DNA of 32,000 bases. Source: Haloferax volcanii DS2. GTDB lineage: Archaea; Halobacteriota; Halobacteria; Halobacteriales; Haloferacaceae. The notes under the pieces are model-generated. The model saw only the letters and a list, made by a program, of their open reading frames with translations, searched no databases and had not been told where the DNA came from. The stretch spans positions 510,001 through 542,000 of the forward strand of contig NC_013966.1 in the NCBI RefSeq assembly GCF_000025685.1. The letters run 5' to 3'. Shown in pieces: positions 3,415 through 23,442 of this stretch. The stretch's first letter is position 1, and every line of letters starts with the position of its first letter. Made by a program: the position numbers and the translations under genes.

Positions 3415-4359
3415 ATGGACCTCGAAACCGTCAAAGAACGGGCGGGCCCGCGGCAGTTCGCTCCGAAGGACGACATGCCAGAGGAGTACCGCAAGGCCGC
3501 GACGCGGATGATTCAGTTCCACGCGAACAGCGAGGTGATGGGCGGGTACCTCGAAAAGCCGTTCATCCGGCAAGCGCCGAGCATCGACCGAAAGCTGGCG
3601 TTCTCGGCGAAGGTGCAGGACGAAATCGGCCACGCGCAACTGCTCTACCGCGCCGCCGAGTCCCTCGGCATCAAGACGCGCGACGAGATGCTGGACGAAC
3701 TCGCCCGCGGCGACGGCAAGTTCCTCAACTGCTTCCACTACCCGATGGAGTCGTGGCACGAGGTGCCGATGATAGCGTTCTTCGTCGACGGCGCGGCCAT
3801 GCACCGGCAGGCGACGCTCAAGAACACGTCGTGGACGCCGTACGCCCACGCGATGGACAAAGTGTGCTTCGAGGAGGGCTTCCACGTCAAACACGGCGAA
3901 TCCATCCTCTCCGAGTTGATGAACGGGTCGAAGGCGACCCAAGAGAAGACGCAGGCCGCCTTCGAGACGTGGTGGCCGCGCATCATCCAGTTCTTCGGCC
4001 CGACCAACGACAAGTCCGTCCACAACGACTTCGCGCAGGAGGTCGGCCTGAAGACGAAGTCCAACGACGAACTTCGCGACACCTTCCTCGACACCTACGT
4101 CCCGAAAGCGGAGAAGTACGGCCTCGTCGTCCCCGAGTACCCGCGCATCGAGTACGACGAGGAACTCGACACCTACCACGTCAACGAGGACGACCTGAAC
4201 TGGGACGAGTTCTGGACCATCGCCAAGAACGCCTCGGACGGGAGTCACGAGCAGATTAACTCCCGCGCAAAGGCGCAGGCGGCGGTCGAGTGGGTGCGCG
4301 AATCGATGCACAGTTGGGAGGGCGCGTCGGGGGCCGAAACCCCGCAGGCGGCGGACTGA
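3415..4359 (+). CDS. paaA: 1,2-phenylacetyl-CoA epoxidase catalytic subunit PaaA
   Basis: Ferritin-like di-iron ExxH motifs (QDEIGHAQ, EEGFHVKH) and the conserved MIQFHANSEVMGGY stretch. First gene of a tightly packed paaABCD set. The start could be ATG 3415 (MDLETVK) or ATG 3394. The 3394 ATG lies inside a recurring GATGATAG promoter motif. Confidence 0.9.
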   Translation: MDLETVKERAGPRQFAPKDDMPEEYRKAATRMIQFHANSEVMGGYLEKPFIRQAPSIDRKLAFSAKVQDEIGHAQLLYRAAESLGIKTRDEMLDELARGDGKFLNCFHYPMESWHEVPMIAFFVDGAAMHRQATLKNTSWTPYAHAMDKVCFEEGFHVKHGESILSELMNGSKATQEKTQAAFETWWPRIIQFFGPTNDKSVHNDFAQEVGLKTKSNDELRDTFLDTYVPKAEKYGLVVPEYPRIEYDEELDTYHVNEDDLNWDEFWTIAKNASDGSHEQINSRAKAQAAVEWVRESMHSWEGASGAETPQAAD

Positions 4360-4364
4360 GAACC

Positions 4365-4685
4365 ATGATTTGGGAAGTGTTCAGACAGGACAAACCGGGA
4401 GCGTACCACAAACACTGCGGCAACGTCCACGCGCCGGACCGCGAGTTGGCGCTCCAGTTCGCGGCCGTCCAGCACGGCCGACGGATGAAGACCCACAGCC
4501 TGTGGGTCGTTCCGCACGACGAAATCGGTGAAATCGACGCCGACGAGACGAGCTTCGGCGGGACGACCGACAAGACCTACCGCTGGGCCACCTCGTACAC
4601 GGACATCGAACCGGCCGCGCCGGAAGTCGCCGAAAGCGAGGCCGAGCAGGCCGACGTGGAGAAATCGCTCGAGGCGGACAGCTAA
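4365..4685 (+). CDS. paaB: 1,2-phenylacetyl-CoA epoxidase subunit PaaB
   Basis: ORF 4290..4685 trimmed to ATG 4365 (MIWEVFRQ...), 5 nt after the paaA stop. The small size and WEVF...H.HCG.VHAPD...AL pattern are typical of PaaB. Confidence 0.88.
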   Translation: MIWEVFRQDKPGAYHKHCGNVHAPDRELALQFAAVQHGRRMKTHSLWVVPHDEIGEIDADETSFGGTTDKTYRWATSYTDIEPAAPEVAESEAEQADVEKSLEADS

Positions 4686-4687
4686 CC

Positions 4688-5506
4688 ATGCCCGACGCCC
4701 TCAATCCCGAAGACCTCGACGCCGAACAGCGCGCCGCGCTCGAAGAGTTGCTGTTCCGCCTCGCGGACGACGAGTACGTCCACGGCGAGCGCCTCATCGA
4801 GTGGCAGATTTACGCGCCGACGCTGGAGTCCGACCTCGCGTTGGCGAACGTCGCACAGGACGAATTCGGCCACGCCCGCCTGTGGTACGACCTGCTCGAA
4901 GAACTCGGCCACACCGAGGCGGAACTCATCTGGGAGCGCCCCGCCGACGAGTTCAGACACGCCACGCTGGTCGAACTCCCGTTCGCGGAGGGCGACTGGG
5001 CCGACGTGGTCCTTCGGAGCTACCTCTACGACGCCGCCGAGCGCCTGCGCCTCGACGCGCTCGTCGACACCAGCTACGCGCCGCTCTCCGACCGCGTCGG
5101 CAAGGTGCTGAGCGAGGAGCGCTACCACCTCGAAAACGCCCAGAGCTGGCTCGACCGCCTCGCCGAGGGCGACAGCCGCGACCGCGTACAGGACGCGCTC
5201 GACCGGCTGTTCCCCCACGCACTCTCGCTTTTCGTCGAGCCCGAATACGAGGACGCAATCGTCGACAACGGCTTCCGGACGATGTCCACCGCCGACCTCC
5301 GCATCGAGTGGCTGGAGACGGTCATTCCGTACCTCGAATCGCTCGGGCTCGACGTGCCCGAACCCGACGAGGTCGAGCGCCCGAGCGCCCGCGGCCGCGA
5401 CGGCACCCACACCGACCACTGGGACGAACTGGCCGCGGAGTTCCGGCGGACGTACGACGAGCTCGAAGCGCCCGAGCCGGCGAGAATCGGCGGGGAGCGT
5501 GTCTGA
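4688..5506 (+). CDS. paaC: 1,2-phenylacetyl-CoA epoxidase structural subunit PaaC
   Basis: 272-aa ferritin-like protein with QDEFGHARLW and SEERYHLEN motifs. It starts 2 nt after the paaB stop. Confidence 0.88.
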   Translation: MPDALNPEDLDAEQRAALEELLFRLADDEYVHGERLIEWQIYAPTLESDLALANVAQDEFGHARLWYDLLEELGHTEAELIWERPADEFRHATLVELPFAEGDWADVVLRSYLYDAAERLRLDALVDTSYAPLSDRVGKVLSEERYHLENAQSWLDRLAEGDSRDRVQDALDRLFPHALSLFVEPEYEDAIVDNGFRTMSTADLRIEWLETVIPYLESLGLDVPEPDEVERPSARGRDGTHTDHWDELAAEFRRTYDELEAPEPARIGGERV

Positions 5507-5942
5507 CGTGAGCGCCGACGACGCGCGCGAGGCGACGGCCTGCGGCTACACGGAGTACGTCGACGGCGAGGTCCCGGAGGGCTTCCCGAAGACGGGCGTC
5601 GGAGCCACGGGCGTCGAAGCCGACATCTGGGACGCCCTCTACGAAATCGAGGACCCCGAGATGCCGGTGAGCATCGTCGACCTCGGCCTCATCTACGACG
5701 TTCGGGTCGTCGAGCGAGAGGGCGAAGACGGCGAGACGAAGACGCTCGGTATCGTCGAGATGACGCTGACGTACACCGGCTGTCCGGCGCGCGACTATCT
5801 CGAAAACGACGTGCAGTGCGCGATTCTGGCGGCCGGCGTCGACGAGGCGTCCGTACGGCTCCGGTTCACGCCGGAGTGGACCGTCGACATGGTGACCGAG
5901 GCGGGCCGCGAGGCCCTCCGCGAGTTCGGGCTGGGGGTGTGA
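5499..5942 (+). CDS. paaD: PaaD N-terminal module (DUF59/MIP18-type domain), ending at an in-frame TGA
   Basis: GTG start overlaps the paaC stop by 8 nt. It carries the DUF59 signature IEDPEMPVSIVDLGLIYDV...TLTYTGCPA. It ends with ...REALREFGLGV, exactly where bacterial PaaD continues into its Zn-ribbon. Confidence 0.8.
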   Translation: MSDVSADDAREATACGYTEYVDGEVPEGFPKTGVGATGVEADIWDALYEIEDPEMPVSIVDLGLIYDVRVVEREGEDGETKTLGIVEMTLTYTGCPARDYLENDVQCAILAAGVDEASVRLRFTPEWTVDMVTEAGREALREFGLGV

Positions 5943-5945
5943 GCG

Positions 5946-6113
5946 ATGCGCCGCTTCGACCCAAGCACCGAGACGACGGGCGAGACATCGGGCGCGGAGT
6001 GCCCGTACTGCGGTGGCACGAACACCGTCCGCGAGCACCCGAAAGGGCCGGGACTGTGCCGGTCGATGCACTTCTGTAACGACTGTCAAGAGCCGTTCCA
6101 GCGGTTCGAATAA
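5946..6113 (+). CDS. PaaD C-terminal Zn-ribbon module as a separate 55-aa ORF (not in the supplied ORF track)
   Basis: My translation: MRRFDPSTETTGETSGAECPYCGGTNTVREHPKGPGLCRSMHFCNDCQEPFQRFE. The pattern CPxCG...C(K/R)x(L/M)xxCxxCxEPFxxF matches the C-terminus of bacterial PaaD. Third-codon G/C is about 84 percent. It is in the same frame as 5499..5942, separated only by TGA-GCG. Confidence 0.65.
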   Translation: MRRFDPSTETTGETSGAECPYCGGTNTVREHPKGPGLCRSMHFCNDCQEPFQRFE

Positions 6114-8258: not shown

Positions 8259-8876
8259 TCAGTCGGCCATCGAGACGCCGAGGTACCGGTCGAGCACCTC
8301 GTCGGCGGCCGCGCCGTCGTCGTTCAGTTCCTCGATTTTTCGCTGGACCTGCTTGACGACGGCGGGCGCGAGCCCTTCGGTCGGCTCGTCGAGCAACAGG
8401 AGGTCCGGCGCGGAGACGAGCGCGCGGGCGATGGCGAGCATCTGCTGTTCGCCGCCCGAGAGGTTCGCACCCCGGCTGTTCCGGTGGCGCGCGAGGTTCT
8501 CGAACTCGTCGACGATGGCGTCGACGGTCGGTTTTTCGGCGTCTCGACGACCGCCGATGCGGCCGATTTCGACGTTCTCGGAGACGGTCAGGCCGGGGAA
8601 GACGCGGCGCTCCTCGGGGACGAGTGCGATGCCCTCGCGGGCGGTCTTCTCCGGCGACAGCGTCGTGATGTCCGCCCCGTCGAAGGTGATAGTCCCCTCG
8701 GACGGCGGGACGTTCCCGAGGATGCTCCGGAGCGTCGTCGTCTTGCCGACGCCGTTGCGCCCGATGAGCGTGACGACCGACCCGCGAGGCACGTCGAAGT
8801 CGATGCCTTGCAGGACGCGGGTCGACCCGTAGCCCGAGACGAGTCCGCGGACGGACAAGAGCGGGTCGTCGCTCAC
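8259..8876 (-). CDS. livF: LivF-type ABC ATPase, abnormally short (in-frame loss of the switch region)
   Basis: GTG start with GTGA overlap onto livG. Walker A (GRNGVGKTT), signature (LSGGEQQ) and Walker B (LLLLDEPTEGL) are present. The sequence jumps from ...KIEELNDDG directly to AAADEVLDRYLGVSMAD. The protein is 205 aa; typical LivF is about 235-240 aa. Confidence 0.8.
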   Translation of the reverse strand: MSDDPLLSVRGLVSGYGSTRVLQGIDFDVPRGSVVTLIGRNGVGKTTTLRSILGNVPPSEGTITFDGADITTLSPEKTAREGIALVPEERRVFPGLTVSENVEIGRIGGRRDAEKPTVDAIVDEFENLARHRNSRGANLSGGEQQMLAIARALVSAPDLLLLDEPTEGLAPAVVKQVQRKIEELNDDGAAADEVLDRYLGVSMAD

Positions 8877-11576: not shown

Positions 11577-11625
11577 CCCGACGACGAGAACGTTGCGTTC
11601 GGCCCTGAGCCCCCGGTTCGGTCCC

Positions 11626-12630
11626 TCAGGCGAGTCGCGGTCGGACCTCGTCGCCGAGTCGGCGGACGGACTCGACCATCCGGTCGGTGCCGATGCCGGG
11701 GTAGTAGGTACGGAAGATGAAGTGGATGTCGTCGCCGAGCGCGTCGCGGTAGCGGTCGAGCTCCGCGACCACGTCGTCGGGCGTACCGAAGACGGCCTGT
11801 GCTTTGAGTTCCGCCCGGCGCTCGTCGGACAGTTCGTGGACCTCGTCGCCGGAGAACATCTCGGCGTACCGGCGCTGGAGGTAGAGGTAGCCGTCTCTCA
11901 TCGCGTCCCACGCCTCGGCCTTCGAGTCACCGACGAAACCGTGTTGGAGGACGTATATCGTGAACTCACCGTCGAGTCCCTCGGCCTCCCGGACGCTCCG
12001 AATGTCCTCGACGCGCTTGCGCACGCCGTCGAGGGAGAGCGACGACGGCGCGCACCACGCGTCCGCCGTCCGGGCCGCCCGGCGAACCGCGGGCTTGGCC
12101 GCGCCGCCGAGCATGAGGGGCACGTCGTGTGCCGGCTTGGGCGTCACGTCGACACCGGTCGCACCCTCGTGAAACGGCGACTCGTGCGCTATCGGACCGT
12201 CTGACCACGCGTCGCGGAGGAGGGAGACGGCGTCGGCGAGGCGGTCGACGCGCTCGTCTCGCGGAACGCCGAAGGCGTCGAACTCGCGGGGGTTCGAGCC
12301 GATTGCGAGGCCGAGCGTCGTTCGCCCGCCCGAGATGAGGTCGACCGTCGCCGCGTCCTCCGCGAGCCGAATCGGGTCGTACAGCGGCGCGAGCGCGATA
12401 CACGTCCCGAGTTCGACCGACTCGGTCGCCGCCCCGAGCGCCCCGAGCGCGGGCATCGTCCCCGAGAGGTAGCCGTCCGGCATGAAGTGGTGTTCGGACA
12501 CCCACGCGCTGTCGAGGCCCGCGTCGTCTATCTCCCGCCCGAGCGTCAGCATCTCGTCGTACAGGTCGGCCATCGCCCGGTCGTCGTCCGGCCGCCGCTG
12601 GCAGGTGAACAGTCCCGTCCCGAGTTTCAT
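11626..12630 (-). CDS. LLM-class (luciferase-like) flavin-dependent oxidoreductase
   Basis: 334 aa with the SAWVSEHHF motif and TIM-barrel LLM architecture. It is the first gene of the minus-strand unit that continues into the ABC transporter. Confidence 0.85.
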   Translation of the reverse strand: MKLGTGLFTCQRRPDDDRAMADLYDEMLTLGREIDDAGLDSAWVSEHHFMPDGYLSGTMPALGALGAATESVELGTCIALAPLYDPIRLAEDAATVDLISGGRTTLGLAIGSNPREFDAFGVPRDERVDRLADAVSLLRDAWSDGPIAHESPFHEGATGVDVTPKPAHDVPLMLGGAAKPAVRRAARTADAWCAPSSLSLDGVRKRVEDIRSVREAEGLDGEFTIYVLQHGFVGDSKAEAWDAMRDGYLYLQRRYAEMFSGDEVHELSDERRAELKAQAVFGTPDDVVAELDRYRDALGDDIHFIFRTYYPGIGTDRMVESVRRLGDEVRPRLA

Positions 12631-12685: not shown

Positions 12686-12925
12686 ATGAGTCCCGACGAC
12701 TCGGCACCCTCGGATTCGACGACTGCGACCGCGACCGCGACGGAGCCAGCGCCGCCGGCCGCGCGCGTCGTGGGGCGCGCGGTGGAAGACGGCTGGACCG
12801 AGGCGTTCGTCTCGCCGCGAAGCCCGACCGGCGCGCTCTTTCAGTTGATGGAGTACCACGACGACTACGGTGAGAAGGGAGCCGACGACGCGTTGTTCGT
12901 CCGCGGCGAGCGGTTGGATTCGTGA
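12686..12925 (+). CDS. Short ORF resembling only the C-terminal strand set of a VOC/glyoxalase (methylmalonyl-CoA-epimerase-like) protein; possible gene remnant
   Basis: 79 aa. GWTEAFVSPRSPTGALFQLMEY resembles the VOC C-terminal motif (AF..P....G.L.EL.E). The N-terminus is low-complexity (TTATATATEPAPPAA). Third-codon G/C is about 86 percent and promoter spacing is good, which argues it is or recently was coding. Confidence 0.45.
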   Translation: MSPDDSAPSDSTTATATATEPAPPAARVVGRAVEDGWTEAFVSPRSPTGALFQLMEYHDDYGEKGADDALFVRGERLDS

Positions 12926-12945: not shown

Positions 12946-13416
12946 TTACTCCGCGGCCGACTTCGTCTTGATGAGGAACTTCATGTCGCCTTCGAGGACG
13001 ACCGTGCCGTCCTGCTTCGTCATCTCGATTTCGAGGACGACCAAGCCGGCGTCGTCGCGGCTCCCGAGGTCCTTCCGCTCCGAGACGACCATCGTCTGCG
13101 AGAGCGTGTCACCGATGAACACCGGGTTCGGCAGGTCCATGTAGTTCATCCCGAGGAAGGCGATGGCGGTGCGCTCGACGATGCCCGACCGGTACACGAA
13201 GCCGGTCGACTGGACGAACGTCATCGGCCCGTGGGCGATTCGCTGGCCGAACTGGGTGTCTTCCGCGTACTCGCTGTTCGTGTGGAGTTCGGTCCAGTCG
13301 CCCGACAGCGCGGAGTGCATCATGAAGTCCGCCTCGGTGACGGTGCGACCGACGCTCTGGAACTCCTTGCCCTCCTCGAAGTCCTCGAAGTAGTGCGGTT
13401 CGTAGCTGTATGCCAT
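12946..13416 (-). CDS. MaoC-like (R)-specific enoyl-CoA hydratase, hotdog fold (candidate PaaZ-hydratase equivalent)
   Basis: 156 aa with a MaoC dehydratase pattern (...FGQRIAHGPMTF...). TATA-like TTTATC lies about 21 nt upstream on the minus strand. Confidence 0.82.
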   Translation of the reverse strand: MAYSYEPHYFEDFEEGKEFQSVGRTVTEADFMMHSALSGDWTELHTNSEYAEDTQFGQRIAHGPMTFVQSTGFVYRSGIVERTAIAFLGMNYMDLPNPVFIGDTLSQTMVVSERKDLGSRDDAGLVVLEIEMTKQDGTVVLEGDMKFLIKTKSAAE

Positions 13417-13512: not shown

Positions 13513-13923
13513 ATGTCGGAGCAAGACGACTACGCGGAGATACGGGAGCGCGCCTCGAACGACCCCTACTGCGGGCGCGTCGGCATCGACCTCGCCGAGG
13601 TCGGTGACGGGTACGCGGAGACGACGCTGACCGTGGCCGAAGACCACCTGAACTTCCACGGGACGCCCCACGGAGGCGCGGTGTACAGCCTCGCGGACGC
13701 GGCCTTCGCGGCCGCCTCGAACAGCCACGGCGACGCCGCGTTCGCGCTGGAGACGAACATCTCGTACCTCGCGGCCGCCGAGGTGGGCGAGACGCTCCGC
13801 GCGGTCGCCCGGGAGACGCACCTCGGGCGACGGACCGCGGAGTACGAGGTCGTCGTCTCCGGCGGGGACGGCGAGCGAATCGCGACCTTTCGGGGGCGCG
13901 TCTACAAGCCCGGCGGTCGCTGA
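13513..13923 (+). CDS. paaI: PaaI-type phenylacetyl-CoA-family thioesterase (copy 2)
   Basis: ATG 13513 within ORF 12922..13923 (the upstream part is antisense shadow of maoC). It has the hotdog motif HGTPHGGAVYSLADAAF. It is convergent with, and 9 nt from, paaK. Confidence 0.85.
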   Translation: MSEQDDYAEIRERASNDPYCGRVGIDLAEVGDGYAETTLTVAEDHLNFHGTPHGGAVYSLADAAFAAASNSHGDAAFALETNISYLAAAEVGETLRAVARETHLGRRTAEYEVVVSGGDGERIATFRGRVYKPGGR

Positions 13924-13932
13924 CGACGCGCG

Positions 13933-15222
13933 TTACTGGCCGCGGTGGTCGTAGACGCGCTGGACCTTTCCGACCTCGGTGCGCGCGATGTCGCCGTACT
14001 CGACGAGGTGCAGTTCGTCGGGCGTAAACGAGAGCACGTTCGAGAGTCGCTTTTGAATCCGCCCTTCGAGGTCCGACAGCGACCCGCCGAACTCCTCGAC
14101 CAGTTCGACCGTGATTTCGACCCGGTCGAGGCTCCCCTCGCGGCGGAGGTCGATGCGGTAGTGCGGCGCGATTTCGTCGAACTCGAGGACGACCGACTCG
14201 ACCTCGCTCGGGTAGAAGTTCACGCCGCGGACGATTATCAGGTCGTCCGACCGGCCCGTGATGTTGTCCATGCGGACGCAGGTTCGGCCGCACTCGCAGG
14301 TGTCGTAGTCCAGCGTGGTCAGGTCGCCCGTCCGATACCGGAGGACAGGCAGCGCGTCCTTCGCGAGGGTCGTCAACACGAGTTCGCCCTCCTCGCCCTC
14401 CTCGACGGGGTCGCCCGTGTTCGGGTCGACCACCTCGGGGTAGAAGTAGTCCTCCCAGATGTGCAGGCCGTCCTGCGCTTCGCACTCGACGGAGACGCCG
14501 GGGCCGACGATTTCCGAGAGGCCGTAGATGTCGATGCCGGTCACGCCGAGTCGCTCTTCGATTTCGTTTCGCATCGGTTCGGTGCAGGGTTCCGCGCCGA
14601 AGATGACCGTCCGAAGCGGCAGGTCGCGGATGTCGGTTCCCATGTCGTCTGCGACCTCGGCGAGATAGAGCGCGTACGACGGGGTACACGCGATGACGTC
14701 GCTTCCGAGGTCGGAGAGCAGTTCCACCTGTCTTTGGGTGTTGCCGCCGCCGATGGGGATGACCGTCGCGCCGAGTTCCTCGACGCCCTGGTGGAGGCCG
14801 AGACCGCCGGTGAACAGACCGTAGCCGTAGGCGTTCTGGACCACGTCGTCCGAACCGACGCCGGCCGCGACGAGACACCGCGCGACCGCCTTGCTCCACA
14901 CGTCGAGGTCCTCGCGGGTGTAGCCGACGATTTTGGGCTTGCCGGTCGTGCCCGACGACGCGTGGACGCGAATCACGTCGTCCATGTCGACCGCGAACAT
15001 CCCCGTGGGGTAGTGGTCGCGGAAGTCCTCCTTCGTCGTGAACGGCAGTTTCGACAGGTCTTCGACGCTCTCGATGTCAGCGGGCGAGAGCCCGGCCGCG
15101 TCGAACGTCTCGCGGTAGAACTCGACGTTCTCGTACGCGTTCCGAACCGTCTCCCGCAGGCGACCGTCCTGCACCTCGCGGAGCTCCTCCCGCGAGGCGG
15201 TCTCCGTGCTATCGAATACCAT
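13933..15222 (-). CDS. paaK: Phenylacetate-CoA ligase PaaK
   Basis: ORF 13933..15279 trimmed to ATG 15222 (MVFDSTETASREEL...). It has the AMP-binding loop SSGTTGKPK and a PaaK-type N-terminus (LRETVRNAYENVEFYRETF). TATA TTTTTATCAC (reverse of 15248-15257) lies about 25 nt upstream. Confidence 0.92.
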   Translation of the reverse strand: MVFDSTETASREELREVQDGRLRETVRNAYENVEFYRETFDAAGLSPADIESVEDLSKLPFTTKEDFRDHYPTGMFAVDMDDVIRVHASSGTTGKPKIVGYTREDLDVWSKAVARCLVAAGVGSDDVVQNAYGYGLFTGGLGLHQGVEELGATVIPIGGGNTQRQVELLSDLGSDVIACTPSYALYLAEVADDMGTDIRDLPLRTVIFGAEPCTEPMRNEIEERLGVTGIDIYGLSEIVGPGVSVECEAQDGLHIWEDYFYPEVVDPNTGDPVEEGEEGELVLTTLAKDALPVLRYRTGDLTTLDYDTCECGRTCVRMDNITGRSDDLIIVRGVNFYPSEVESVVLEFDEIAPHYRIDLRREGSLDRVEITVELVEEFGGSLSDLEGRIQKRLSNVLSFTPDELHLVEYGDIARTEVGKVQRVYDHRGQ

Positions 15223-15322: not shown

Positions 15323-16486
15323 ATGCGAGACGCATACATCGTCGGAGCGGGCCAATCGAAGTACGGCGCGTTTCCGGACGAGAGCTATCGGTCGCTGTTC
15401 GCGACCGCGTTCGAGGAGGCACTGGGGAGCGCCGGCGGTGTCGAGGCGGCCGATATCGACGAGGCCGTCGTCGGGTCGCTCGGCGTCGGCGGTCGGCAAC
15501 TCGGCTTATCGGGACCGGCCGTGACGGAGCACGTCGGCCTCCACGGCGTCCCCTGTTCCCGAATCGAAAACGCCTGCGCAGCGAGCGGCTACGCGGTCAG
15601 ACAGGCGGTGCAGGCGGTCAAAAGCGGGATGGCGGACGTGGCCCTCGCGGGGGGCTACGAGGTCATGACCGACACGAGCGGCGACGTGGCGAAGTACTGG
15701 CTCGGCGTCAGCGGCGAGACGGAGTGGGAGCGTCTCACCGGGACGACGTTCGCGGGCGTCTACGCCCAGATTGCCTCGGCGTATCTCGACGCCTACGACG
15801 CCTCGCCGGACCACTTCTCGAAGGTCGCGGTGAAGAACCACGCGAACGGCGCGAAGAACCCGAAGGCGCACCTCGGCTTCGAGTGCTCGCTCGACGACGC
15901 GCGGAGCGCGCCCGTCGTGGCCGACCCGCTGAATCTCTATCACTGCTGTCCGACCTCCGACGGCGCGGCCGCGGTTCTCGTCGCCAGCGAGGGCGTTGCC
16001 AACGCGTGCGACGACGCGGTCCGCGTCGCGGGCGTGGGTGCCGCCTCCGAGCGCGTCGGCCTCTTCCAGCGCGACAGCTACACCGCCGTCGAATCGTCCG
16101 AGCGGGCCGCCGCGGCCGCCTACGAGATGGCCGGTCTCGGCCCCGACGACGTGGACTTCGCGGAGGTCCACGACTGCTTCGCCATCGCCGAGTTGCTGGC
16201 GTACGAGGACCTCGGCTTCTGCGAGCGCGGACACGCGCCCGAACTGGTCGACTCGGGAGCGACCGAACTCGGCGGCGACCTGCCCGTCAACCCCTCCGGC
16301 GGCCTGAAATCGAAGGGCCACCCCATCGGCGCGACGGGCGCGGGGCAGGTCGTCGAGGCGTTCAAACAACTCACCGGGCGGGCCGGTGATCGGCAAGTCG
16401 CGGGCGCGAGCGTCGGCCTCACCCACAACGTCGGCGGGTCGGGCGGGGCCGCCGTCGTCCACGTCCTCGAAGGGGGTGCGCTATGA
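15323..16486 (+). CDS. SCP-x/archaeal-type thiolase (candidate 3-oxoadipyl-CoA / 3-oxo-5,6-dehydrosuberyl-CoA thiolase, PaaJ role)
   Basis: 387 aa with nucleophile Cys in IENACAASG, the VHDCF motif and GGLKSKGHPIGATG. Its stop overlaps the next start (ATGA at 16483-16486). Confidence 0.88.
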   Translation: MRDAYIVGAGQSKYGAFPDESYRSLFATAFEEALGSAGGVEAADIDEAVVGSLGVGGRQLGLSGPAVTEHVGLHGVPCSRIENACAASGYAVRQAVQAVKSGMADVALAGGYEVMTDTSGDVAKYWLGVSGETEWERLTGTTFAGVYAQIASAYLDAYDASPDHFSKVAVKNHANGAKNPKAHLGFECSLDDARSAPVVADPLNLYHCCPTSDGAAAVLVASEGVANACDDAVRVAGVGAASERVGLFQRDSYTAVESSERAAAAAYEMAGLGPDDVDFAEVHDCFAIAELLAYEDLGFCERGHAPELVDSGATELGGDLPVNPSGGLKSKGHPIGATGAGQVVEAFKQLTGRAGDRQVAGASVGLTHNVGGSGGAAVVHVLEGGAL

Positions 16487-18051
16487 GCGCCGACGACCCG
16501 GCCCGAGCGACCCTCGGAATCGCCGGGGTCGGCGCGTACGTTCCTCGGCTGTACCTCCCCGCGTCGGCCTACCGCGAGGCGTGGGGCAAGGGCGGCGCGC
16601 CGGGCGTCGACCGGGTCGCCGTCGCCGACGCCGACGAAGACACCCTGACGATGGCGACCGAGGCGGGCCGGCGCGCACTCCGCGCGGCCGGGGTTGACGC
16701 CGGCGACATCGACCACCTCGCCCTTGCGACCACGACGCCGCCGAACGACGAGGAGGAAATCGCGGTTCGGCTGGCCTCGCTCCTCGGCGTCGACCCGTCG
16801 GTTCCGACCCGGCAGTTCGGCGGGAGTACCCGCGCCGGCGCGGTGGCGCTGGCGGCGACGGTCGAGGCGACACAGAACGTGGGTGACGGCGCGAGCAGTC
16901 CGAGGCTCGTCGTCGTCACCGACAGCCCGCGAGGAGCGCCCGAAAGCGACGAGGCGGCCGGTGCCGGGGCGGGGGCGACCGCGCTCGTCCTCGCCGAAGA
17001 CGGACCGCTCGTCGTCGACGCCGTGGGCGAGTTCGGTGACCCCGCACCCGGTGCGCGGTTCCGAGGGTTCGGGAGCGCCGAGACGGAGTCCATCGGCGTC
17101 ACGCAGTACGAACGCGACGCCTACACGCGGGCGGTCGTCGGGGCGGTCGAGGCCCTCGGCATCGACACGGCCGAACTGGATCCCGACGCCGTGGCCCTCA
17201 CCGCGCCGGACGGGAAACTCCCGTACCGCGCGGCCAACGCGCTCGACGTCGAACCGGCGCGAATCGCGGCCGGGACCGTCGTCTCGCGAACCGGTGACGC
17301 CGGGGCCGCCGGGCCGGTTCTCGGACTCGCGTCGGCGCTCGACTCCGCGGGCGACGCGGGAGCCGACGAGTCGGACGGCCGGTCCCCCGCGACCTCGGTA
17401 CTCCTCGTCGGCTACGGCGGCGGCGCGGGGGCGACCGCGCTCGCGCTCAGCACAGAGGCGACAGACACCAACGCCGCCGCCAGTTCCGTCGTCCCGGTCG
17501 AGGCGGTCCTCGACGGCGACGTGGAACTCTCGTACGCGGAGGCGCTCCGGCGGCGCGGGACCATCACCGGCGGGGAGCCGGCTGGCGGCGGTGCGTACGT
17601 CAGCGTGCCGACGTGGAAGCGGACGATTCCGCAGCGACACCGCCTCGTCGCCGGCGAGTGCACCGAGTGCGGGGCGCTCTCGTTCCCGCCGGAAGGGGCG
17701 TGTGCCGACTGCGGGTCGCTCGCGGGCTACGACGACGTGACGCTGCCCGGAACGGGAACCGTCGAGGCCGCGACCGCCATCGGACAGGGGGGCGCGCCGC
17801 CGGAGTTCGTCGAGCAACAGCAGCGGGCCGGGTCGTTCCCGGTCGCCGTCGTCGCCTTCGACGGGCCGGGCGGCGAGGGCGGCGAGACCGACGAGCGAAC
17901 CGTGAGCGCGCCCGCACAGGTCGTCCACTCGCCCGCCGGAACGCCCGCAATCGGCGACCGCGTCGAGGCCGTCCCGCGCCGCATCTACGAGCAGGAGGGC
18001 GTCGTCAGGTACGGCTTCAAGGTCGTCCCGACCGAGGCGCGGCGGGAGTAA
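16483..18051 (+). CDS. Fusion protein: HMG-CoA-synthase-like (condensing-enzyme fold) domain lacking catalytic Cys/Glu, plus a DUF35 Zn-ribbon/OB-fold domain
   Basis: The N-terminus (GIAGVGAYVPRLYLPASAYREAWGK...DEDTLTMATEAGRRAL) resembles archaeal HMGCS. The only four Cys in 522 aa are C393/C396/C407/C410 (C-x2-C-x10-C-x2-C, nt 17659-17712). This ribbon is followed by an OB-like C-terminus, which is the DUF35 layout. Confidence 0.8.
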   Translation: MSADDPARATLGIAGVGAYVPRLYLPASAYREAWGKGGAPGVDRVAVADADEDTLTMATEAGRRALRAAGVDAGDIDHLALATTTPPNDEEEIAVRLASLLGVDPSVPTRQFGGSTRAGAVALAATVEATQNVGDGASSPRLVVVTDSPRGAPESDEAAGAGAGATALVLAEDGPLVVDAVGEFGDPAPGARFRGFGSAETESIGVTQYERDAYTRAVVGAVEALGIDTAELDPDAVALTAPDGKLPYRAANALDVEPARIAAGTVVSRTGDAGAAGPVLGLASALDSAGDAGADESDGRSPATSVLLVGYGGGAGATALALSTEATDTNAAASSVVPVEAVLDGDVELSYAEALRRRGTITGGEPAGGGAYVSVPTWKRTIPQRHRLVAGECTECGALSFPPEGACADCGSLAGYDDVTLPGTGTVEAATAIGQGGAPPEFVEQQQRAGSFPVAVVAFDGPGGEGGETDERTVSAPAQVVHSPAGTPAIGDRVEAVPRRIYEQEGVVRYGFKVVPTEARRE

Positions 18052-18110: not shown

Positions 18111-19022
18111 ATGATGGTTCCCGAACCCCTTTCGGTGATGCAAGTGAGTGTACTCGGCGCGGGAACCATGGGTCACGGCATCGCGCAGGTGGCCGCGATG
18201 GCCGGTCACGAGGTGACGATGCGTGACATCGAAGCGGCGTACGTCGACGATGGACTGGACGCCATCGAGTCGAACCTCCGGGGCGGCGTCGACCGCGACA
18301 AGGTGACGCCCGACGAGATGGCGGCGACGCTCGATCGACTCTCGGGGACGACCTCGCTGGAGGCGGCCGTCACCGACGCCGACCTCGTCGTCGAGGCGGT
18401 TCCCGAGGATATGGAACTCAAGCGCGAGACGGTCGCGGAGGTCGAATCCCTCGTCGACGACGACGCCGTCATCGCGTCGAACACGTCGTCGCTCTCCGTG
18501 ACCCAGATACTGAGCGCCCTCGAACGTCCGGAGCGCGGCCTCGGACTCCACTTCTTCAACCCGGTCCACATCATGGGGCTCGTCGAGGTCGTCGTCGCGG
18601 AACAGACGAGCGAATCGACGCTGGCGTTCGCCACCGAGTTCGTCGAGGGCATCGACAAGACCGCCGTCGAGGTCGGTGACTCGCCCGGCTTCGCCTCCTC
18701 GCGGCTCGGCGTCGCCCTCGGCGTCGAGGCCATGCGCATGGTGCAGGAGGGCGTCGCGTCGCCCGCGGACGTCGACACCGCGATGGAGCTCGGGTACAAC
18801 CACCCGATGGGGCCACTCGAACTCGGAGACGCGGTCGGCCTCGACGTTCGCCTCGACATCCTCGAATACCTACGCGAGGAACTGGGCGAGCGCTTCCGCC
18901 CGCCGCAGATTCTCAAGCGAAAGGTCCGCGCCGGCAAGCTCGGCAAGAAGACCGGTGAGGGCTTCTACGTCTGGGAGGACGGCGAAATCGTCGGCGCGCC
19001 CGAGGACGTGATGGACCGATGA
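18111..19022 (+). CDS. 3-hydroxyacyl-CoA dehydrogenase (PaaH-like)
   Basis: ATG 18111 (or ATG 18138, MQVSVLGAGTMG) within ORF 17613..19022. It has the Rossmann motif VLGAGTMGHGIA, NTSSLS, HFFNP and C-terminal dimerisation domain motifs. Confidence 0.9.
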   Translation: MMVPEPLSVMQVSVLGAGTMGHGIAQVAAMAGHEVTMRDIEAAYVDDGLDAIESNLRGGVDRDKVTPDEMAATLDRLSGTTSLEAAVTDADLVVEAVPEDMELKRETVAEVESLVDDDAVIASNTSSLSVTQILSALERPERGLGLHFFNPVHIMGLVEVVVAEQTSESTLAFATEFVEGIDKTAVEVGDSPGFASSRLGVALGVEAMRMVQEGVASPADVDTAMELGYNHPMGPLELGDAVGLDVRLDILEYLREELGERFRPPQILKRKVRAGKLGKKTGEGFYVWEDGEIVGAPEDVMDR

Positions 19023-19900
19023 GCGGTGACGAGCCGAGCGCCGATGACTCGCAGACAGACGACCTCCGCACCGACGGAGGGGAATCGACCGTCGAGTCGG
19101 TCGCCGCCGAGTGCGAGACGGTCGACGCCGTCGTCGACGACCGCGTCGAAGGCGTCGTCACCGTGACGCTGAACCGCCCCGACGCGCGGAACGCGCTCAA
19201 CGCGACGCTCCGGGCTGAACTCAAGCGCGTCCTCGACGCCATCGAAGCGAGCAGCGCCCGCGTCGTCGTCCTCACCGGCTCCGACGAGGCGAAGGCGTTC
19301 GTCGCCGGCGCGGACGTAACGGAGCTCCGCGAGCGCGATATGCTCGAACAGCGCGAGGCGAGCAAGCGACCGCGAGTGTACGAACGCGTCGACGACCTCC
19401 GACAGCCGGTCATCGCCCGCGTAAACGGCCACGCCCTCGGCGGCGGCTGCGAACTGATGCAGGCCTGCGACGTTCGCATCGCCCACGAGCGGTCGAAACT
19501 CGGCCAACCCGAAATCAATCTCGGCATCATGCCCGGCGGGGGCGGCACCCAGCGACTCGCGCGTCTCGTCGGCGAGGGACACGCCATGCGACTCGTCCTG
19601 ACGGGCGAGCTCATCTCCGCCGAGGAGGCCGCGGACATCGGCCTCGTGGAGGAGGTCCACGGCGACGAGACCTTCGACGAGCGGGTGTACGAACTCGCAG
19701 AGCTGATGGCGACGAAGAGCCCCGTGGCCCTGGAGTTCGCCAAGAAAGCGGTCAAGGCCGCCTCGCGGACAGACCTCGAACAGGGCATCGAGTACGAGGC
19801 GGAGCTGTTCGCCCAACTGTTCGGGTCGCCAGACAAGGACGAGGGTATCGACGCGTTCTTCGAGGACCGCGAACCCGAATGGCACGAGCGCGAGCGATAG
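19019..19900 (+). CDS. Enoyl-CoA hydratase (crotonase, PaaF-like)
   Basis: ATGA overlap with the dehydrogenase gene. Both catalytic Glu contexts are present (GGGCELMQACD and QPEINLGIMPGGGGTQRL). It has an acidic N-terminal extension of about 40 aa. Confidence 0.9.
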   Translation: MSGDEPSADDSQTDDLRTDGGESTVESVAAECETVDAVVDDRVEGVVTVTLNRPDARNALNATLRAELKRVLDAIEASSARVVVLTGSDEAKAFVAGADVTELRERDMLEQREASKRPRVYERVDDLRQPVIARVNGHALGGGCELMQACDVRIAHERSKLGQPEINLGIMPGGGGTQRLARLVGEGHAMRLVLTGELISAEEAADIGLVEEVHGDETFDERVYELAELMATKSPVALEFAKKAVKAASRTDLEQGIEYEAELFAQLFGSPDKDEGIDAFFEDREPEWHERER

Positions 19901-20512: not shown

Positions 20513-21283
20513 TCAGGAGAAGTTGAGGTTGATTTCGACCTCGTTGGCCGCGCCGAGGAGGAGGTCCGCGAGGTCGCCGGTCATTCGGTCGCCCCGAAGC
20601 CGGTTCGAGGGCCCCGAGATGCTTATCGCTCCGACGGGGCGGCCCTCGTTGTCGGTGACGGCGACGCCGACGGCGTGGAGTTTCGGGACGATTTCCTCGC
20701 GGTTGAGCGCGAACCCGCGCTCGCGAATCGTCGCCAGCTCCTCGAAGAGCGCGTCGGGGTCGGTTATCGTCTGCGGCGTCTTCGCCGGGAGGCCGTGTCG
20801 GTCGACGATGTCGCGGACGCGCTCGTCCGGGAACGCCGACAGGATGGCCTTGCCGGCGGCGAGTTGGTGGAGGTACGAGCGCGTCCCCTCCCGCGCTGGC
20901 GTCCGCACCGAGTGCGCGCCGGCCGCGCCGTAGAGGTGGAACCCGCGGCCCTGCTCTTCCGTGACGCACCACACTTTCTCGCCGGTCTGCTCGGCGAGTT
21001 CGTCCAGTTTCGGCTTGGCCACCTCGTACAGTTGGTGCTGGTCGCGCGCGTAGATGCCGAAGTCGAGGAGCCGAAGGCCGACCCGGTAGCCGTCGTCGTC
21101 GGGGACGACGAACCCCTCGCGTTCGAGCGTCTTCAGATGCCGGTGGACCGTGCTCTTGGCCAATCCGAGCTCCGAGGCGAGCCCCGTCGGCCCCATCGGT
21201 CCCCCCGATTTGAGCTGTTCGAGGATACCGAGCGACGTGGCGGCCGTCGTCACCGGTCGGCGCTGTTCGTCGTCTGTCATCAC
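20513..21283 (-). CDS. IclR-family transcription regulator
   Basis: 256 aa with an N-terminal winged HTH (LASELGLAKSTVHRHLKTLEREGFV) and a C-terminal IclR effector domain. TATA TTTATCAC (reverse of 21303-21310) lies about 24 nt upstream of the ATG. Confidence 0.9.
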   Translation of the reverse strand: MMTDDEQRRPVTTAATSLGILEQLKSGGPMGPTGLASELGLAKSTVHRHLKTLEREGFVVPDDDGYRVGLRLLDFGIYARDQHQLYEVAKPKLDELAEQTGEKVWCVTEEQGRGFHLYGAAGAHSVRTPAREGTRSYLHQLAAGKAILSAFPDERVRDIVDRHGLPAKTPQTITDPDALFEELATIRERGFALNREEIVPKLHAVGVAVTDNEGRPVGAISISGPSNRLRGDRMTGDLADLLLGAANEVEINLNFS

Positions 21284-21313
21284 TTATCGTCGGTGTTCAT
21301 TCGTGATAAATCT

Positions 21314-21330
21314 GTTCGAACAGTTCGAAC
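21314..21330. promoter_or_regulatory. Tandem palindrome GTTCGAAC-A-GTTCGAAC abutting the iclR TATA box (candidate IclR autoregulatory operator)
   Basis: Exact 17-mer, immediately upstream (BRE side) of the iclR TATA. It is followed by CTCGAAC half-sites at 21345-21351 and 21366-21372 with roughly helical spacing. It sits in the iclR / ethD divergent spacer. Confidence 0.55.
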
Positions 21331-21422
21331 GTCAGTTCCACCCACTCGAACGCCCTCGACGGCCGCTCGAACCGCGAGTCAGCGATAGAGCAAAGTAACG
21401 TCGGATTGGATCGCAGACGTGC

Positions 21423-21743
21423 ATGATTAAATTGGTGAATATGCTCGTCCGGGACGACGACTACACGCACGAGGAGTTCGTCGAGCGGTGGCGGGGGAGC
21501 CACGCGGAACTCGCGAGGGAGTTTCCGGGGCTCGTGAAGTACGCGACGAGCGTCCCGACCGACCCCGAACGGTCCGAGTACGACGGTATCGTCGAACTCT
21601 ACTTCGAGGACATGGCCGCTCTGAAGGCGGCGTTCGACTCCGAGGTCGGTCAGCGCGTGAACGCCGACGCGGCGGCGTTCACCGACATGGAACGGGGACC
21701 GACGCTCTACGTCGAGGAGACGGTTCACCTCGACAGGTCCTGA
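21423..21743 (+). CDS. EthD-domain protein (dimeric alpha/beta-barrel family)
   Basis: 106 aa. PGLVKYATSVPTDPERSEYDGIVELYFEDMAAL closely parallels both repeats of the protein at 25853..26575. Confidence 0.78.
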   Translation: MIKLVNMLVRDDDYTHEEFVERWRGSHAELAREFPGLVKYATSVPTDPERSEYDGIVELYFEDMAALKAAFDSEVGQRVNADAAAFTDMERGPTLYVEETVHLDRS

Positions 21744-21747
21744 ATCT

Positions 21748-23442
21748 ATGAACACGAGCGAACGACTCGTCGAGAGCCTCGAACGGCTCGGCGTCGAGCG
21801 AATCTTCGGCTACCCCGGCGGCCGCGTCATCGAACTGTTCGACCTGCTGCCCGAGTCGGACATCGACCTCGTGCGCCCCCGCGACGAGCGCGAGGCGAGC
21901 GTCATGGCCGAGATGCACGGTCGGTTGACGGGCGAACCGGGCGTCCTCGCCGGGCAGGGACCGTGGATAGGAAGCCTCGGCCTCATCGGACAGATGGAGG
22001 CGCGCCTCGCCTCGTCGCCGGTGGTCACCATCACCGAGGCCTCCGAGCGCGGGGCCTACTCGACGCTCGCGCCCTACCAGCAGTCCCGCGGCGACTACGG
22101 CGGCCTCGAACTCCCGAAGATTCTCGACGCCGTGACGAAGGAACACTGGTTCCCGCGGACCCCGACCGAGACGGTTCGGAGCCTCCAACTCGCGTTCAAA
22201 CACGCCGTCGCGGGTCGACCCGGCCCGACGGCGGTCATCCTCGACGGCGACGCCGTCACCGAACCGTTCCCGGACGAGTCCGTACCGGCGGTCTGGGACG
22301 ACGAAACGCAGACCAGAACGTGGACCGCCGCGCCGACGGCGCGCGACATCGCCGCCGCCGCCGAGGCGCTCGACGCGGCCGAGCGACCGGTCATCGTCTC
22401 GGGCAACGGCGTCCACGCGTCGGGCGCGTACGACGAACTCGCGGCGGTCGCCGAGGCCTACGAAGCCGCGGTCGTCACCTCCTACCTCGGGAAATCGACG
22501 TTTCCCGAGACGCACCGCCTCGCCGGCGGCGTCATCGGCTCGTTCGGTCACGAGGGCGCGAACCGACTCGTCAGCGAGGCCGACGCGCTCCTCGTCGTCG
22601 GCTGTCGCATGAACCCGATGGACACCAACTGGCAGGCCCCCGACTTCATCCGCCCCGACGAGCAGACGATTATCCACGCCGACATCGACCCGCGGAACGC
22701 CGGATGGGTCTACCCCGCCGACGTGGGGCTCATCGGTGACGCGTCCGAATCGCTGCGCGAACTCGCGGCCGCCGGCGGCACCGACAACGACTGGGCAGAA
22801 GACCGAGCGCGGGAGGCCCGCGAGTCGTTTTACGCGCCCGAGTGCGGGTCGGACGCCGCGCCAATCCTCCCCCAGCGGGCCGTCAAGGAAATCGAGCGCG
22901 TCGTCGACGAGGACACCGTCGTCACCGCCGACTCGGGGAACAACCGCTTTTGGCTGCTCAACTACCTCCAGGTGCCCGCCGTGCAGACGTACTACGGTTC
23001 GGGCGGCGTCGGCGGCATGGGGTGGGCGACGCCCGCCGCGGTGTCGGCCGCGCTGGCGACCGACAAACACGTCGTCGGCGTCGCGGGCGACGGCGGCTTC
23101 GCCATGACGATGACGAGCGTCGAGACGGCGGTCGAACACGGCGTCGCGCCGACGTTCGTCGTCCTCAACGACACCAGCCTCGGGATGGTCAGACAGATGC
23201 AGCACGTGCCCGACGACATCGCGGGCGTCGAGTTCCACGACACGGACTTCGCGCGGGTCGCGGAGGCGTTCGGCGCGACGGGCGTCCGCGTCGAGACGCC
23301 GGGCGAACTCGGCGACGCGCTCGCCGACGCGAAGACGCACGGCCTCCCGGCGGTCATCGACGCCCGTATCGACCGCAGTCAGGACATGGCCGCGACGCTC
23401 CAGTCGTCGTTCTACGCGTCGGTCGGGGGGCTCCACGAATAG
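21748..23442 (+). CDS. Thiamine-diphosphate-dependent enzyme (acetolactate-synthase / 2-ketoacid-decarboxylase superfamily)
   Basis: 564 aa with the PYR-domain motif IFGYPGG, catalytic Glu context RDEREASVMAEMHGR and the ThDP/Mg motif GDG-x24-ND (VAGDGGF...VVLNDTS). It starts 4 nt after the ethD stop. Confidence 0.88.
   Translation: MNTSERLVESLERLGVERIFGYPGGRVIELFDLLPESDIDLVRPRDEREASVMAEMHGRLTGEPGVLAGQGPWIGSLGLIGQMEARLASSPVVTITEASERGAYSTLAPYQQSRGDYGGLELPKILDAVTKEHWFPRTPTETVRSLQLAFKHAVAGRPGPTAVILDGDAVTEPFPDESVPAVWDDETQTRTWTAAPTARDIAAAAEALDAAERPVIVSGNGVHASGAYDELAAVAEAYEAAVVTSYLGKSTFPETHRLAGGVIGSFGHEGANRLVSEADALLVVGCRMNPMDTNWQAPDFIRPDEQTIIHADIDPRNAGWVYPADVGLIGDASESLRELAAAGGTDNDWAEDRAREARESFYAPECGSDAAPILPQRAVKEIERVVDEDTVVTADSGNNRFWLLNYLQVPAVQTYYGSGGVGGMGWATPAAVSAALATDKHVVGVAGDGGFAMTMTSVETAVEHGVAPTFVVLNDTSLGMVRQMQHVPDDIAGVEFHDTDFARVAEAFGATGVRVETPGELGDALADAKTHGLPAVIDARIDRSQDMAATLQSSFYASVGGLHE

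Follow-up and report, generated by a model that had tools for sequence, protein, structure and literature searches.

Background

The closest described relatives of the system reported here are complexes in which a thiolase is joined to an HMG-CoA synthase (HMGCS), or to a protein resembling one, and to a DUF35 protein. In the archaeal complex of this kind (6ESQ), the HMGCS is active (catalytic tetrad E82/C114/H238/N270), DUF35 is a separate subunit of 130 aa, and acetoacetyl-CoA is channelled to HMG-CoA in an anabolic context; the isolated archaeal subunits are insoluble or inactive, and replacement of the tetrad abolishes HMG-CoA synthesis (PMC12960953). Here, we describe a gene pair from Haloferax volcanii DS2, located in a stretch of 32,000 nucleotides (NC_013966.1, positions 510,001 to 542,000; hereafter the window, with positions counted from its first letter), in which a thiolase gene overlaps a gene encoding an HMGCS-like domain without the tetrad, fused to DUF35. 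The pair lies in an island of phenylacetate degradation (paa) genes, and we propose that it is probably a heteromeric thiolase with a non-catalytic partner that supplies thiolysis of the PaaJ type.

HMGCS-like proteins without catalytic residues have been described in bacteria. PhlA is a structurally characterised HMGCS-like subunit that has neither the Cys nor the Glu of HMGCS (Pavkov-Keller et al., PMC6392133); in the PhlACB complex (PpATase) only PhlC touches the substrate, and the DUF35 protein PhlB holds the dimers of PhlA and PhlC together in a dodecamer resembling 6ESQ (PMC6392133). The structure of MucABC (SmaATase) has also been solved, in a study that mined 1,030 HMGS/ACAT/DUF35 loci, all of them bacterial (Liao et al., Nat Commun 2026, PMC12960953). 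Like PhlA, MucA makes no contact with the substrate (PMC6392133, PMC12960953), and the HDxF motif, which is missing from PhlC and MucB, is regarded by its absence as the signature of Friedel-Crafts neofunctionalisation (PMC12960953). Both systems consist of three polypeptides, are encoded in secondary-metabolite clusters and transfer acetyl groups to phenolic or tetramate acceptors.

The nearest counterpart of the window pair is a purified Pseudomonas fluorescens complex (PfACAT/HMGS-DUF35), in which an HMGS without E-C-H-N is fused to DUF35 and accompanied by an ACAT that keeps the Cys, HDxF and GHx; it makes neither HMG-CoA nor acetoacetyl-CoA, it cleaves acetoacetyl-CoA, and the H294Y exchange in HDxF abolishes its activity (PMC12960953). 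The authors call it not yet recruited into a defined pathway (PMC12960953). The first-pass annotation of the window, made from the letters alone, took the architecture to be undescribed. This was mistaken, as both PhlA (PMC6392133) and the fused P. fluorescens complex (PMC12960953) had been characterised: the fused architecture and its thiolytic behaviour are already known, and the window pair is an archaeal, pathway-embedded example. The likeness to the P. fluorescens complex is one of description, not of sequence comparison, and covers the two-gene organisation, the tetrad-less HMGS fused to DUF35 and the thiolase with intact Cys, HDxF and GHx, whereas the window pair is archaeal, stands in a paa island and belongs to a family reading T-T-(Q/T)-D at the tetrad positions.

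Further parallels are BbsAB, Ltp2-ChsH2(DUF35) and the KT/DUF35 system of S. acidocaldarius, where an SCP2-type thiolase-fold subunit also needs a DUF35 partner; these have no HMGCS-like module, and in them DUF35 is either a separate protein or joined to a hydratase. The haloarchaeal PhaA/BktB alpha-beta ketothiolases of Hou et al. (2013) are reportedly DUF35-dependent thiolase-fold enzymes without an HMGCS-like module as well. E. coli PaaJ and PcaF, which share with the window pair the proposed pathway position beside PaaH-like and PaaF-like genes, differ in that PaaJ is a homotetrameric class I/II thiolase that works without partner proteins, whereas the window thiolase is of the SCP2/archaeal type.

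The gene pair and its thiolase

The thiolase gene (387 aa, positions 15323..16486, plus strand) and the fusion gene (522 aa, 16483..18051, plus strand) share an ATGA stop/start overlap at 16483..16486, which can be read directly from the sequence and implies that the two genes are translationally coupled. Both the overlap and the intact thiolase motifs had been noticed in the first pass and are confirmed here. RefSeq names the 522-aa product "zinc ribbon domain-containing protein".

The 387-aa protein, the presumed catalytic subunit, contains the Pfam domains Thiolase_N and Thiolase_C_1 and scores 419.7 bits with NCBIfam PRK06064 and 373 bits with the archaeal acetyl-CoA acetyltransferase model NF053570. 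Its top match in the PDB is 6esq_A (E=6.6e-80), the thiolase of the Methanothermococcus thiolase/HMGCS/DUF35 complex; BbsB (7pxp_C, 1.8e-48) and Ltp2 (6ok1_A) are also among the PDB matches. The motifs NACAASG at aa 83 (with Cys85), HDCF at aa 283 and GHPIGATG at aa 332 are all intact. HDCF was found in 79/80 thiolase sequences extracted from related loci and ENACA[AS][SG]G in 70/80, the extracted thiolases without a motif including sequences truncated at contig ends. PRK06064 and NF053570 are the top models, and pcaF is absent among the best 25 NCBIfam families; judged by these profile matches, the window thiolase is not an ortholog of PaaJ/PcaF (class I/II, TIGR02430/PRK09050).

Domain structure of the fusion protein

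The fusion protein consists, in one polypeptide, of an N-terminal HMGS-like domain and a C-terminal DUF35 module, all parts being encoded on the plus strand. The first part is an HMGCS/PhlA-like thiolase-fold domain (aa 11-361, 16513..17565), supported by its match to PRK04262, by Foldseek and by the mapping of the tetrad. PRK04262, the archaeal HMGCS model, is matched from profile position 3 to 344 (of 347) with E=1e-39, in agreement with the first-pass view that the N-terminal ~340 aa are HMGCS-like; the score of 136.6 bits lies below the 244-bit family cut-off. TIGR00748 gives 61.9 bits against a cut-off of 353 and NF041302, the haloarchaeal HMGCS model, 16.4 against 800. In the PDB, the best sequence match of this domain is PhlA (5m3k_A, 1.6e-16), followed by HMGCS 6esq_I (8.8e-16); the resemblance to HMGCS cannot be put down to chance.

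A structure model of the single chain, computed with AlphaFold2 (AF2) from 67 homologs (pLDDT 84.8, pTM 0.88), predicts a thiolase-fold (alpha-beta-alpha-beta-alpha) HMGCS-like structure for the N-terminal domain, and its best Foldseek match is again 6esq_I (E=6.8e-25, TM 0.81), with PhlA (TM 0.79), a Chromobacterium ATase subunit and MucA as the next neighbours. The model continues with a flexible linker at ~aa 362-381 (17566..17625), predicted to be disordered at residues 367-384 (pLDDT <50), and with the DUF35 module, in which beta strands are predicted at residues 416-516. This module is composed of a rubredoxin-like zinc ribbon (aa 382-412, 17626..17718; Pfam zf-ChsH2, PF12172, 33.6 bits against a 23.2-bit cut-off) and an OB-fold part (aa 413-517, 17719..18033), the latter assigned from the match to the DUF35 subunit 6esq_E (aa 376-517, E=2.3e-6) and from the modelled strands. 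ChsH2-DUF35 (6ok1_B) is another PDB match of the fusion, and PF01796 is precomputed for many of its homologs. The protein has four Cys only (393, 396, 407 and 410), which form the C-x2-C-x10-C-x2-C ribbon, as had been noted before, and all four are invariant in 81/81 homologs. The three modules of the 6ESQ complex have homologous counterparts in the window in an operon arrangement; the differences are the missing tetrad, the fusion of DUF35 and the catabolic context.

Ala/Gly/Asp-rich low-complexity inserts, modelled with low confidence, are present in the fusion at aa ~289-303, 325-336 and 463-472; they are specific to the H. volcanii group and are missing in the other genera. These inserts are a simpler cause of the GC peak (0.75) at 16-18 kb than foreign DNA, which we considered and rejected. 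The gene had been dropped by a crude GC2/GC3 filter because it is Ala/Gly-rich; its homology, the RefSeq annotation and expression data show that it is real.

Loss of the catalytic tetrad

Fragments of 6esq_I and PhlA were rebuilt from HMMER alignments and aligned with the window protein and 80 locus homologs using MAFFT; the rebuilt fragments reproduce the published numbering of HMGCS (E82, C114, H238, N270) and PhlA (C83, G115) (PMC6392133, PMC12960953). All four tetrad positions are replaced in the window protein. HMGCS E82 corresponds to T84 (T 64, S 16 and A 1 among the 81 proteins), C114 to T116 (T in 81/81), H238 to T240 (Q 70, T 10, H 1) and N270 to D272 (D 80, N 1). PhlA shares the Gln that replaces His in most of the family and the Asp that replaces Asn. 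The replacement of Glu and Cys had been proposed in the first pass from the strings "ATTT" and "FGGSTRAG"; the alignment bears this out and adds that the Thr at the nucleophile position, constant in all 81 locus proteins, is no random replacement.

HMMER, MAFFT and the model (strand 109-112, helix 118-132) concur in placing T116 at the nucleophile elbow, and therefore no mis-aligned Cys, the overlooked nucleophile that might have been suspected, is concealed there. Two other haloarchaeal homologs, outside the 81 locus proteins, have Ala at this position, and in the wider family (best 150 cluster representatives) it is occupied by T, L, P, A, S and further residues. Around the tetrad positions, the motifs TTTPP, GSTRAG, APDGKLPYR and GDTGAA are strongly conserved, which, like the constancy of Thr116 in the 81 locus proteins, does not fit the idea of a merely decayed site. 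The variation across the wider family argues for a structural or ligand-contact role of the Thr116 position rather than a nucleophilic one. By its residues at the tetrad positions and its scores against the equivalog cut-offs, the fusion does not qualify as a catalytically competent archaeal HMG-CoA synthase, and the earlier suggestion of a catalytically dead HMGCS module fused to DUF35 is well supported.

Selection was estimated as dN/dS against four Haloferax orthologs. The thiolase gave the lowest values (0.06-0.08), followed by DUF35 (0.12-0.15) and the HMGS-like domain (0.17-0.41). All modules are thus under purifying selection, with the HMGS-like domain relaxed 3-5x relative to the thiolase; a constrained but relaxed dead domain is as expected for a module that is non-catalytic yet required.

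Distribution and pairing of the two genes

A word-indexed search with the fusion returned 762 relatives at E<1e-5. The best 120 of these are full-length (468-532 aa), and all the named ones come from Halobacteria, including Haloferax, Halorubrum, Natronococcus, Halovenus, Halogeometricum, Haladaptatus and others; they are annotated as "zinc ribbon domain-containing protein", "ACP synthase" or "hydroxymethylglutaryl-CoA synthase". An exhaustive search of 50%-identity cluster representatives gave 1,280 clusters at E<1e-3, and the best 150 of them comprise ~75 fused proteins, with the zinc ribbon at roughly residues 340-380, and ~50 unfused HMGS-like proteins of ~340 aa. E-C-H-N is missing from essentially all of these 150, with one Lokiarchaeota exception.

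Gene order was surveyed in 80 haloarchaeal loci with 10-kb flanks. The thiolase gene lies directly upstream of the fusion in 77/80, the three misses falling at contig ends, and the 4-nt ATGA overlap is present in at least 55/79 related loci, a lower bound since automatic start-codon picking over-extended ~20 fusion reading frames. Distant fused members with names belong to Thermoplasmatota and Chloroflexota. On a Thermoplasmatota contig (L084, 6030-8637), a thiolase of 404 aa is directly followed by a fused HMGS-DUF35 protein of 463 aa, whose tetrad positions read S-R-A-D; the genes around this lone pair are unrelated to it. Thus, the tetrad-less HMGS-DUF35/thiolase pair is pervasive in Halobacteria (80/80 loci) and also occurs in Thermoplasmatota, which is new here.

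The Lokiarchaeota exception is a metagenome-derived protein (P0227/P0278) of 506 aa with the reverse order, DUF35 being N-terminal and followed by an HMGCS with intact E-C-H-N; it is presumably an active enzyme.

The pair within the phenylacetate island

Megaplasmids of Haloferax lucentense and H. alexandrinus match the window at 98-99% identity (98.7% for the H. alexandrinus plasmid over this region). The island contains the ring 1,2-epoxidase genes paaABCDE (3415..6113, plus strand), the PaaE product being tiny; an aldehyde dehydrogenase and a MaoC/PaaZ-C-terminal hydratase (12946-13416, minus strand), which together amount to a split PaaZ; two PaaI-type thioesterases, one of which is a hotdog protein at 13513-13923 (plus strand); a PaaG-like crotonase; and the phenylacetate-CoA ligase PaaK (13933..15222, minus strand, RefSeq coordinates; NF041878 paak_haloarch 797.7 bits against a 700-bit cut-off). 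The paaK and thiolase genes are divergently transcribed, and beyond paaK the order is thiolase, fusion, a PaaH-like 3-hydroxyacyl-CoA dehydrogenase (HCDH; 18138..19022, plus strand), which is the first gene downstream of the fusion, and a PaaF-like enoyl-CoA hydratase (ECH; 19019..19900, plus strand), whose top NCBIfam match is PaaF (2,3-dehydroadipyl-CoA hydratase, 269 bits, under cut-off). No second thiolase was found within the 32-kb window, and PaaJ is the only paa step without another candidate gene there.

The arrangement in which paaK diverges from thiolase-fusion-(HCDH-ECH) is shared by genomes of Haloferacaceae, Natrialbaceae, Haloarculaceae and the Halorubrum group, and in a tree of concatenated thiolase and fusion sequences, paa-linked pairs are found in several clades and four families. 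Natrinema zhouii has both a lone chromosomal pair (L055) and a plasmid paa island (L083) organised like the window. Its plasmid fusion shares 70% identity with the paa-linked copy of Haloarcula japonica but only 58% with its own chromosomal paralog; therefore, the paa-linked pair is a distinct paralog moving with the island, and the identities indicate transfer of the island between families. Such mobility argues for a function of the paralog within the island. Saliphagus also has two pairs, one paa-linked and one stand-alone (L010 and L016).

Expression of the pair can be followed in published H. alexandrinus RNA-seq data, which list a co-induced run of ECH, paaH, "pksG HMG-CoA synthase", "paaJ", paaK, paaI ... 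paaD, paaC, paaB and paaA (PMC10694973). This order is exactly that of the H. alexandrinus plasmid annotation, and therefore "pksG" corresponds to the fusion and "paaJ" to the thiolase. Apart from this transcriptome table, we found nothing specific in the literature on this haloarchaeal protein.

Proposed mechanism

Proceeding from the observed domain identities, tetrad loss, gene coupling, synteny and selection, we propose that the products of the two overlapping genes form a single heteromeric thiolase. Its 387-aa subunit would carry out CoA-dependent thiolysis of a 3-oxoacyl-CoA by means of Cys85, the His of HDCF and GHP, and the 522-aa protein would be its non-catalytic partner. The HMGCS-like domain, derived from or akin to the HMGCS of the archaeal complex, would have lost Glu-Cys-His-Asn, and the flexible linker would tether the DUF35 zinc-ribbon/OB module, which would clamp the thiolase and HMGCS-like dimers and help to build a shared CoA-binding chamber, as it does in the solved complexes. 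A DUF35-bridged assembly is suggested by homology to 6ESQ, 5M3K and 9VBO together with the translational coupling. Folding, solubility or CoA binding of the thiolase probably depends on this partner, in keeping with the archaeal, PhlACB, MucABC and P. fluorescens systems, and such a dependence would explain the continued purifying selection on the dead domain. In the island, the most likely substrates would be 3-oxo-5,6-dehydrosuberyl-CoA and/or 3-oxoadipyl-CoA, processed together with the PaaH-like and PaaF-like enzymes.

The two parts of this proposal differ in strength. That the fusion acts as a scaffold in a complex with the thiolase is likely by analogy with the solved systems, and the earlier suggestion that it is a structural partner of a thiolytic thiolase is well supported by the constant pairing of the genes and the P. 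fluorescens precedent. That the reaction is a thiolytic step of phenylacetate breakdown, also part of the first-pass reading, is somewhat better than an even proposition: it draws support from the single empty slot in the window, from the synteny and from the co-induction and is weakened by the distribution of the pair, which is considered below.

Alternative explanations

How tight is the link between the pair and phenylacetate breakdown? Within 10 kb of the pair, PaaK was found in 27 of the 80 loci, HCDH in 38, ECH in 41 and PaaA in 15. Several points weigh against the proposed role, and the scarcity of PaaK (27/80) weakens the PaaJ assignment in particular. In ~35-40 loci, the pair stands alone among unrelated genes (e.g., those for an ABC transporter, HSP20, PHO4 and OCD), and because of these loci, the thiolase/fusion module is not intrinsically a paa enzyme; in the tree, such lone pairs form a large Natrialbaceae clade and also occur in Halovenus. 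Moreover, a canonical FadA/PcaF-like thiolase adjoins the pair in 16/27 paa-linked loci and in 21 loci overall. It is situated immediately downstream of the fusion, on the opposite strand, before HCDH, as in H. mediterranei pHM500 (L081, 13019-14164, minus strand; TIGR01930 424 bits; pcaF 358 bits, under cut-off) and further in L004-L008, L010, L011, L020, L023, L025, L026, L029, L031, L038, L042, L057, L060 and L083. Outside the H. volcanii group, most paa islands have this gene, which could be the real or main PaaJ in those 16/27 loci; it is also found near the pair in two Halovenus loci without paa genes. In addition, the inducer in the H. alexandrinus experiment was silver stress and not phenylacetate, with the genes matched by order and not by sequence; acetoacetyl-CoA was the only substrate tested with the P. 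fluorescens complex (PMC12960953); and pure scaffolding does not account for the invariant Thr (81/81) and the conserved motifs that flank it.

The pair could accordingly be viewed as a general acetoacetyl-CoA or short-chain 3-ketoacyl-CoA thiolase that merely neighbours the paa genes and serves housekeeping beta-oxidation or the supply of acetoacetyl-CoA for mevalonate or polyhydroxyalkanoate synthesis, the canonical FadA/PcaF thiolase being PaaJ and the PaaJ of this strain being encoded elsewhere. About half of the loci are without paa genes, with the pair alone in Natrialbaceae chromosomes, Halovenus and Thermoplasmatota, and the adjoining canonical thiolase, the NF053570 score and the cleavage of acetoacetyl-CoA by the P. 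fluorescens homolog fit this explanation too. We nevertheless consider it rather unlikely for the window, where the paa-linked copy is a distinct paralog that travels with the island between families on an accessory megaplasmid, is divergent with paaK and upstream of PaaH-like and PaaF-like genes in four haloarchaeal families, and is co-induced with paaABCD and paaK. The window holds no other thiolase, and a search of plasmids found no ortholog of the canonical thiolase on the islands or plasmids of the H. volcanii group (chromosomes were not searched). PaaJ catalyses two thiolytic steps in E. coli, and because of this, the pair and the canonical thiolase could also divide these steps between them where both are present.

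A different question is whether the HMGCS-like domain is really inactive, or whether it performs condensation, hydrolysis or acyl transfer through a non-canonical site such as Thr116 with Asp272. The conservation of Thr116 (81/81), Asp272 (80/81) and the surrounding motifs and the purifying selection on the domain would agree with activity, and thiolase-fold enzymes with a Ser nucleophile, such as DpsC, are known. This possibility is nonetheless improbable, as it has to be set against the replacement of all four tetrad residues, the variable nucleophile position in the wider family with Ala in two haloarchaeal homologs, the abolition of HMG-CoA synthesis by tetrad replacement in the archaeal enzyme, the failure of the P. 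fluorescens complex to condense acetyl-CoA and the lack of substrate contact by PhlA and MucA; furthermore, each paa step already has another candidate gene. Still less probable, to a degree that we regard it as very remote, is that the pair works without CoA as a Friedel-Crafts C-acyltransferase like PhlACB and MucABC, with an aromatic acceptor. PhlA is indeed the top PDB sequence match of the N-terminal domain and carries Gln in place of the His and Asp in place of the Asn, and the surroundings belong to aromatic metabolism, but HDCF is kept here and in 79/80 homologs, in contrast to PhlC and MucB, the thiolase is far closer to the archaeal thiolase (272 bits) than to PhlC (99.6 bits), and no polyketide synthase or nonribosomal peptide synthetase gene was found near the pair in the window.

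Evolutionary reading and significance

On the reading preferred here, that of a heteromeric thiolase with a dead partner, the question arises of where such a partner came from. A tentative scenario, which we regard as possible though doubtful, is that Halobacteria, and probably Thermoplasmatota, keep an ancestral thiolase/HMGCS/DUF35 operon as a fossil, a duplicate of which was captured by the mobile paa island. A bacterial-type HMGCS would have taken over mevalonate synthesis in haloarchaea, after which the original would have lost its tetrad and become fused to DUF35; the dead HMGCS would have been kept because the thiolase depended on it structurally, in a ratchet of constructive neutral evolution, and the captured duplicate would replace PaaJ in the island or share its work. 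The premise of a bacterial-type HMGCS is based on the existence of a model made for haloarchaeal HMGCS (NF041302), against which the window protein scores no more than 16.4 bits. The HMGCS of H. volcanii itself is one that we take to be of bacterial type.

If true, this scenario would give tetrad-less HMGS-DUF35 complexes, "not yet recruited" according to Liao et al., their first defined metabolic role; what is new is that one paralog belongs to a defined catabolic island and moves with it, and would fill the PaaJ gap there. Surveys call archaeal phenylacetate pathways "incomplete" (PMC13186573), and this may be in part because the thiolase step is a non-orthologous, mislabelled two-gene module. 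Pipelines label its components "zinc ribbon protein", "ACP synthase", "pksG" or "HMG-CoA synthase", the widely wrong annotation being a further new point; reading the 522-aa protein as a pseudo-enzyme partner would correct this widespread mis-annotation and close the PaaJ gap of the island. It would also provide the tetrad-less HMGS-DUF35/thiolase family with a physiological context that is testable in the genetically tractable Haloferax, and a clean case for asking why a thiolase keeps a dead partner.

Other features of the island

Compared with pSVX82-2 of H. lucentense, which is 98-99% identical, the window differs at 8259-8876, 11576-11626 and 12686-12925. An ABC substrate-binding-protein gene (~1.2 kb), located between the permease and LLM oxidoreductase genes, is missing from the window, a VOC-family gene has a ~265-nt internal deletion, and one ABC ATPase gene has a ~95-nt internal deletion. 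These differences reflect either an eroded uptake system of the island or an imperfect assembly.

Bacterial PaaE is a ferredoxin-NADPH reductase of ~350 aa, whereas the haloarchaeal "PaaE" is a Cys-rich peptide of 55 aa (5946-6113, plus strand; NF041869, 112 bits). Because of this disparity, the electron donor of the haloarchaeal epoxidase must be different from the bacterial one.

The H. mediterranei pHM500 island has two paaK genes (L081, 248-1540 and 9004-10293), which flank a block of ABC transporter genes, whereas the window has one. After the paa genes of the window, an IclR regulator, an EthD protein and an acetolactate-synthase-like enzyme dependent on thiamine pyrophosphate are encoded at 20513-23442, and this trio is also found behind the islands of N. 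zhouii and H. mediterranei. Along with the StyD-like aldehyde dehydrogenase of the window island (6276-7727), it may feed phenylpyruvate or phenylacetaldehyde into the pathway.

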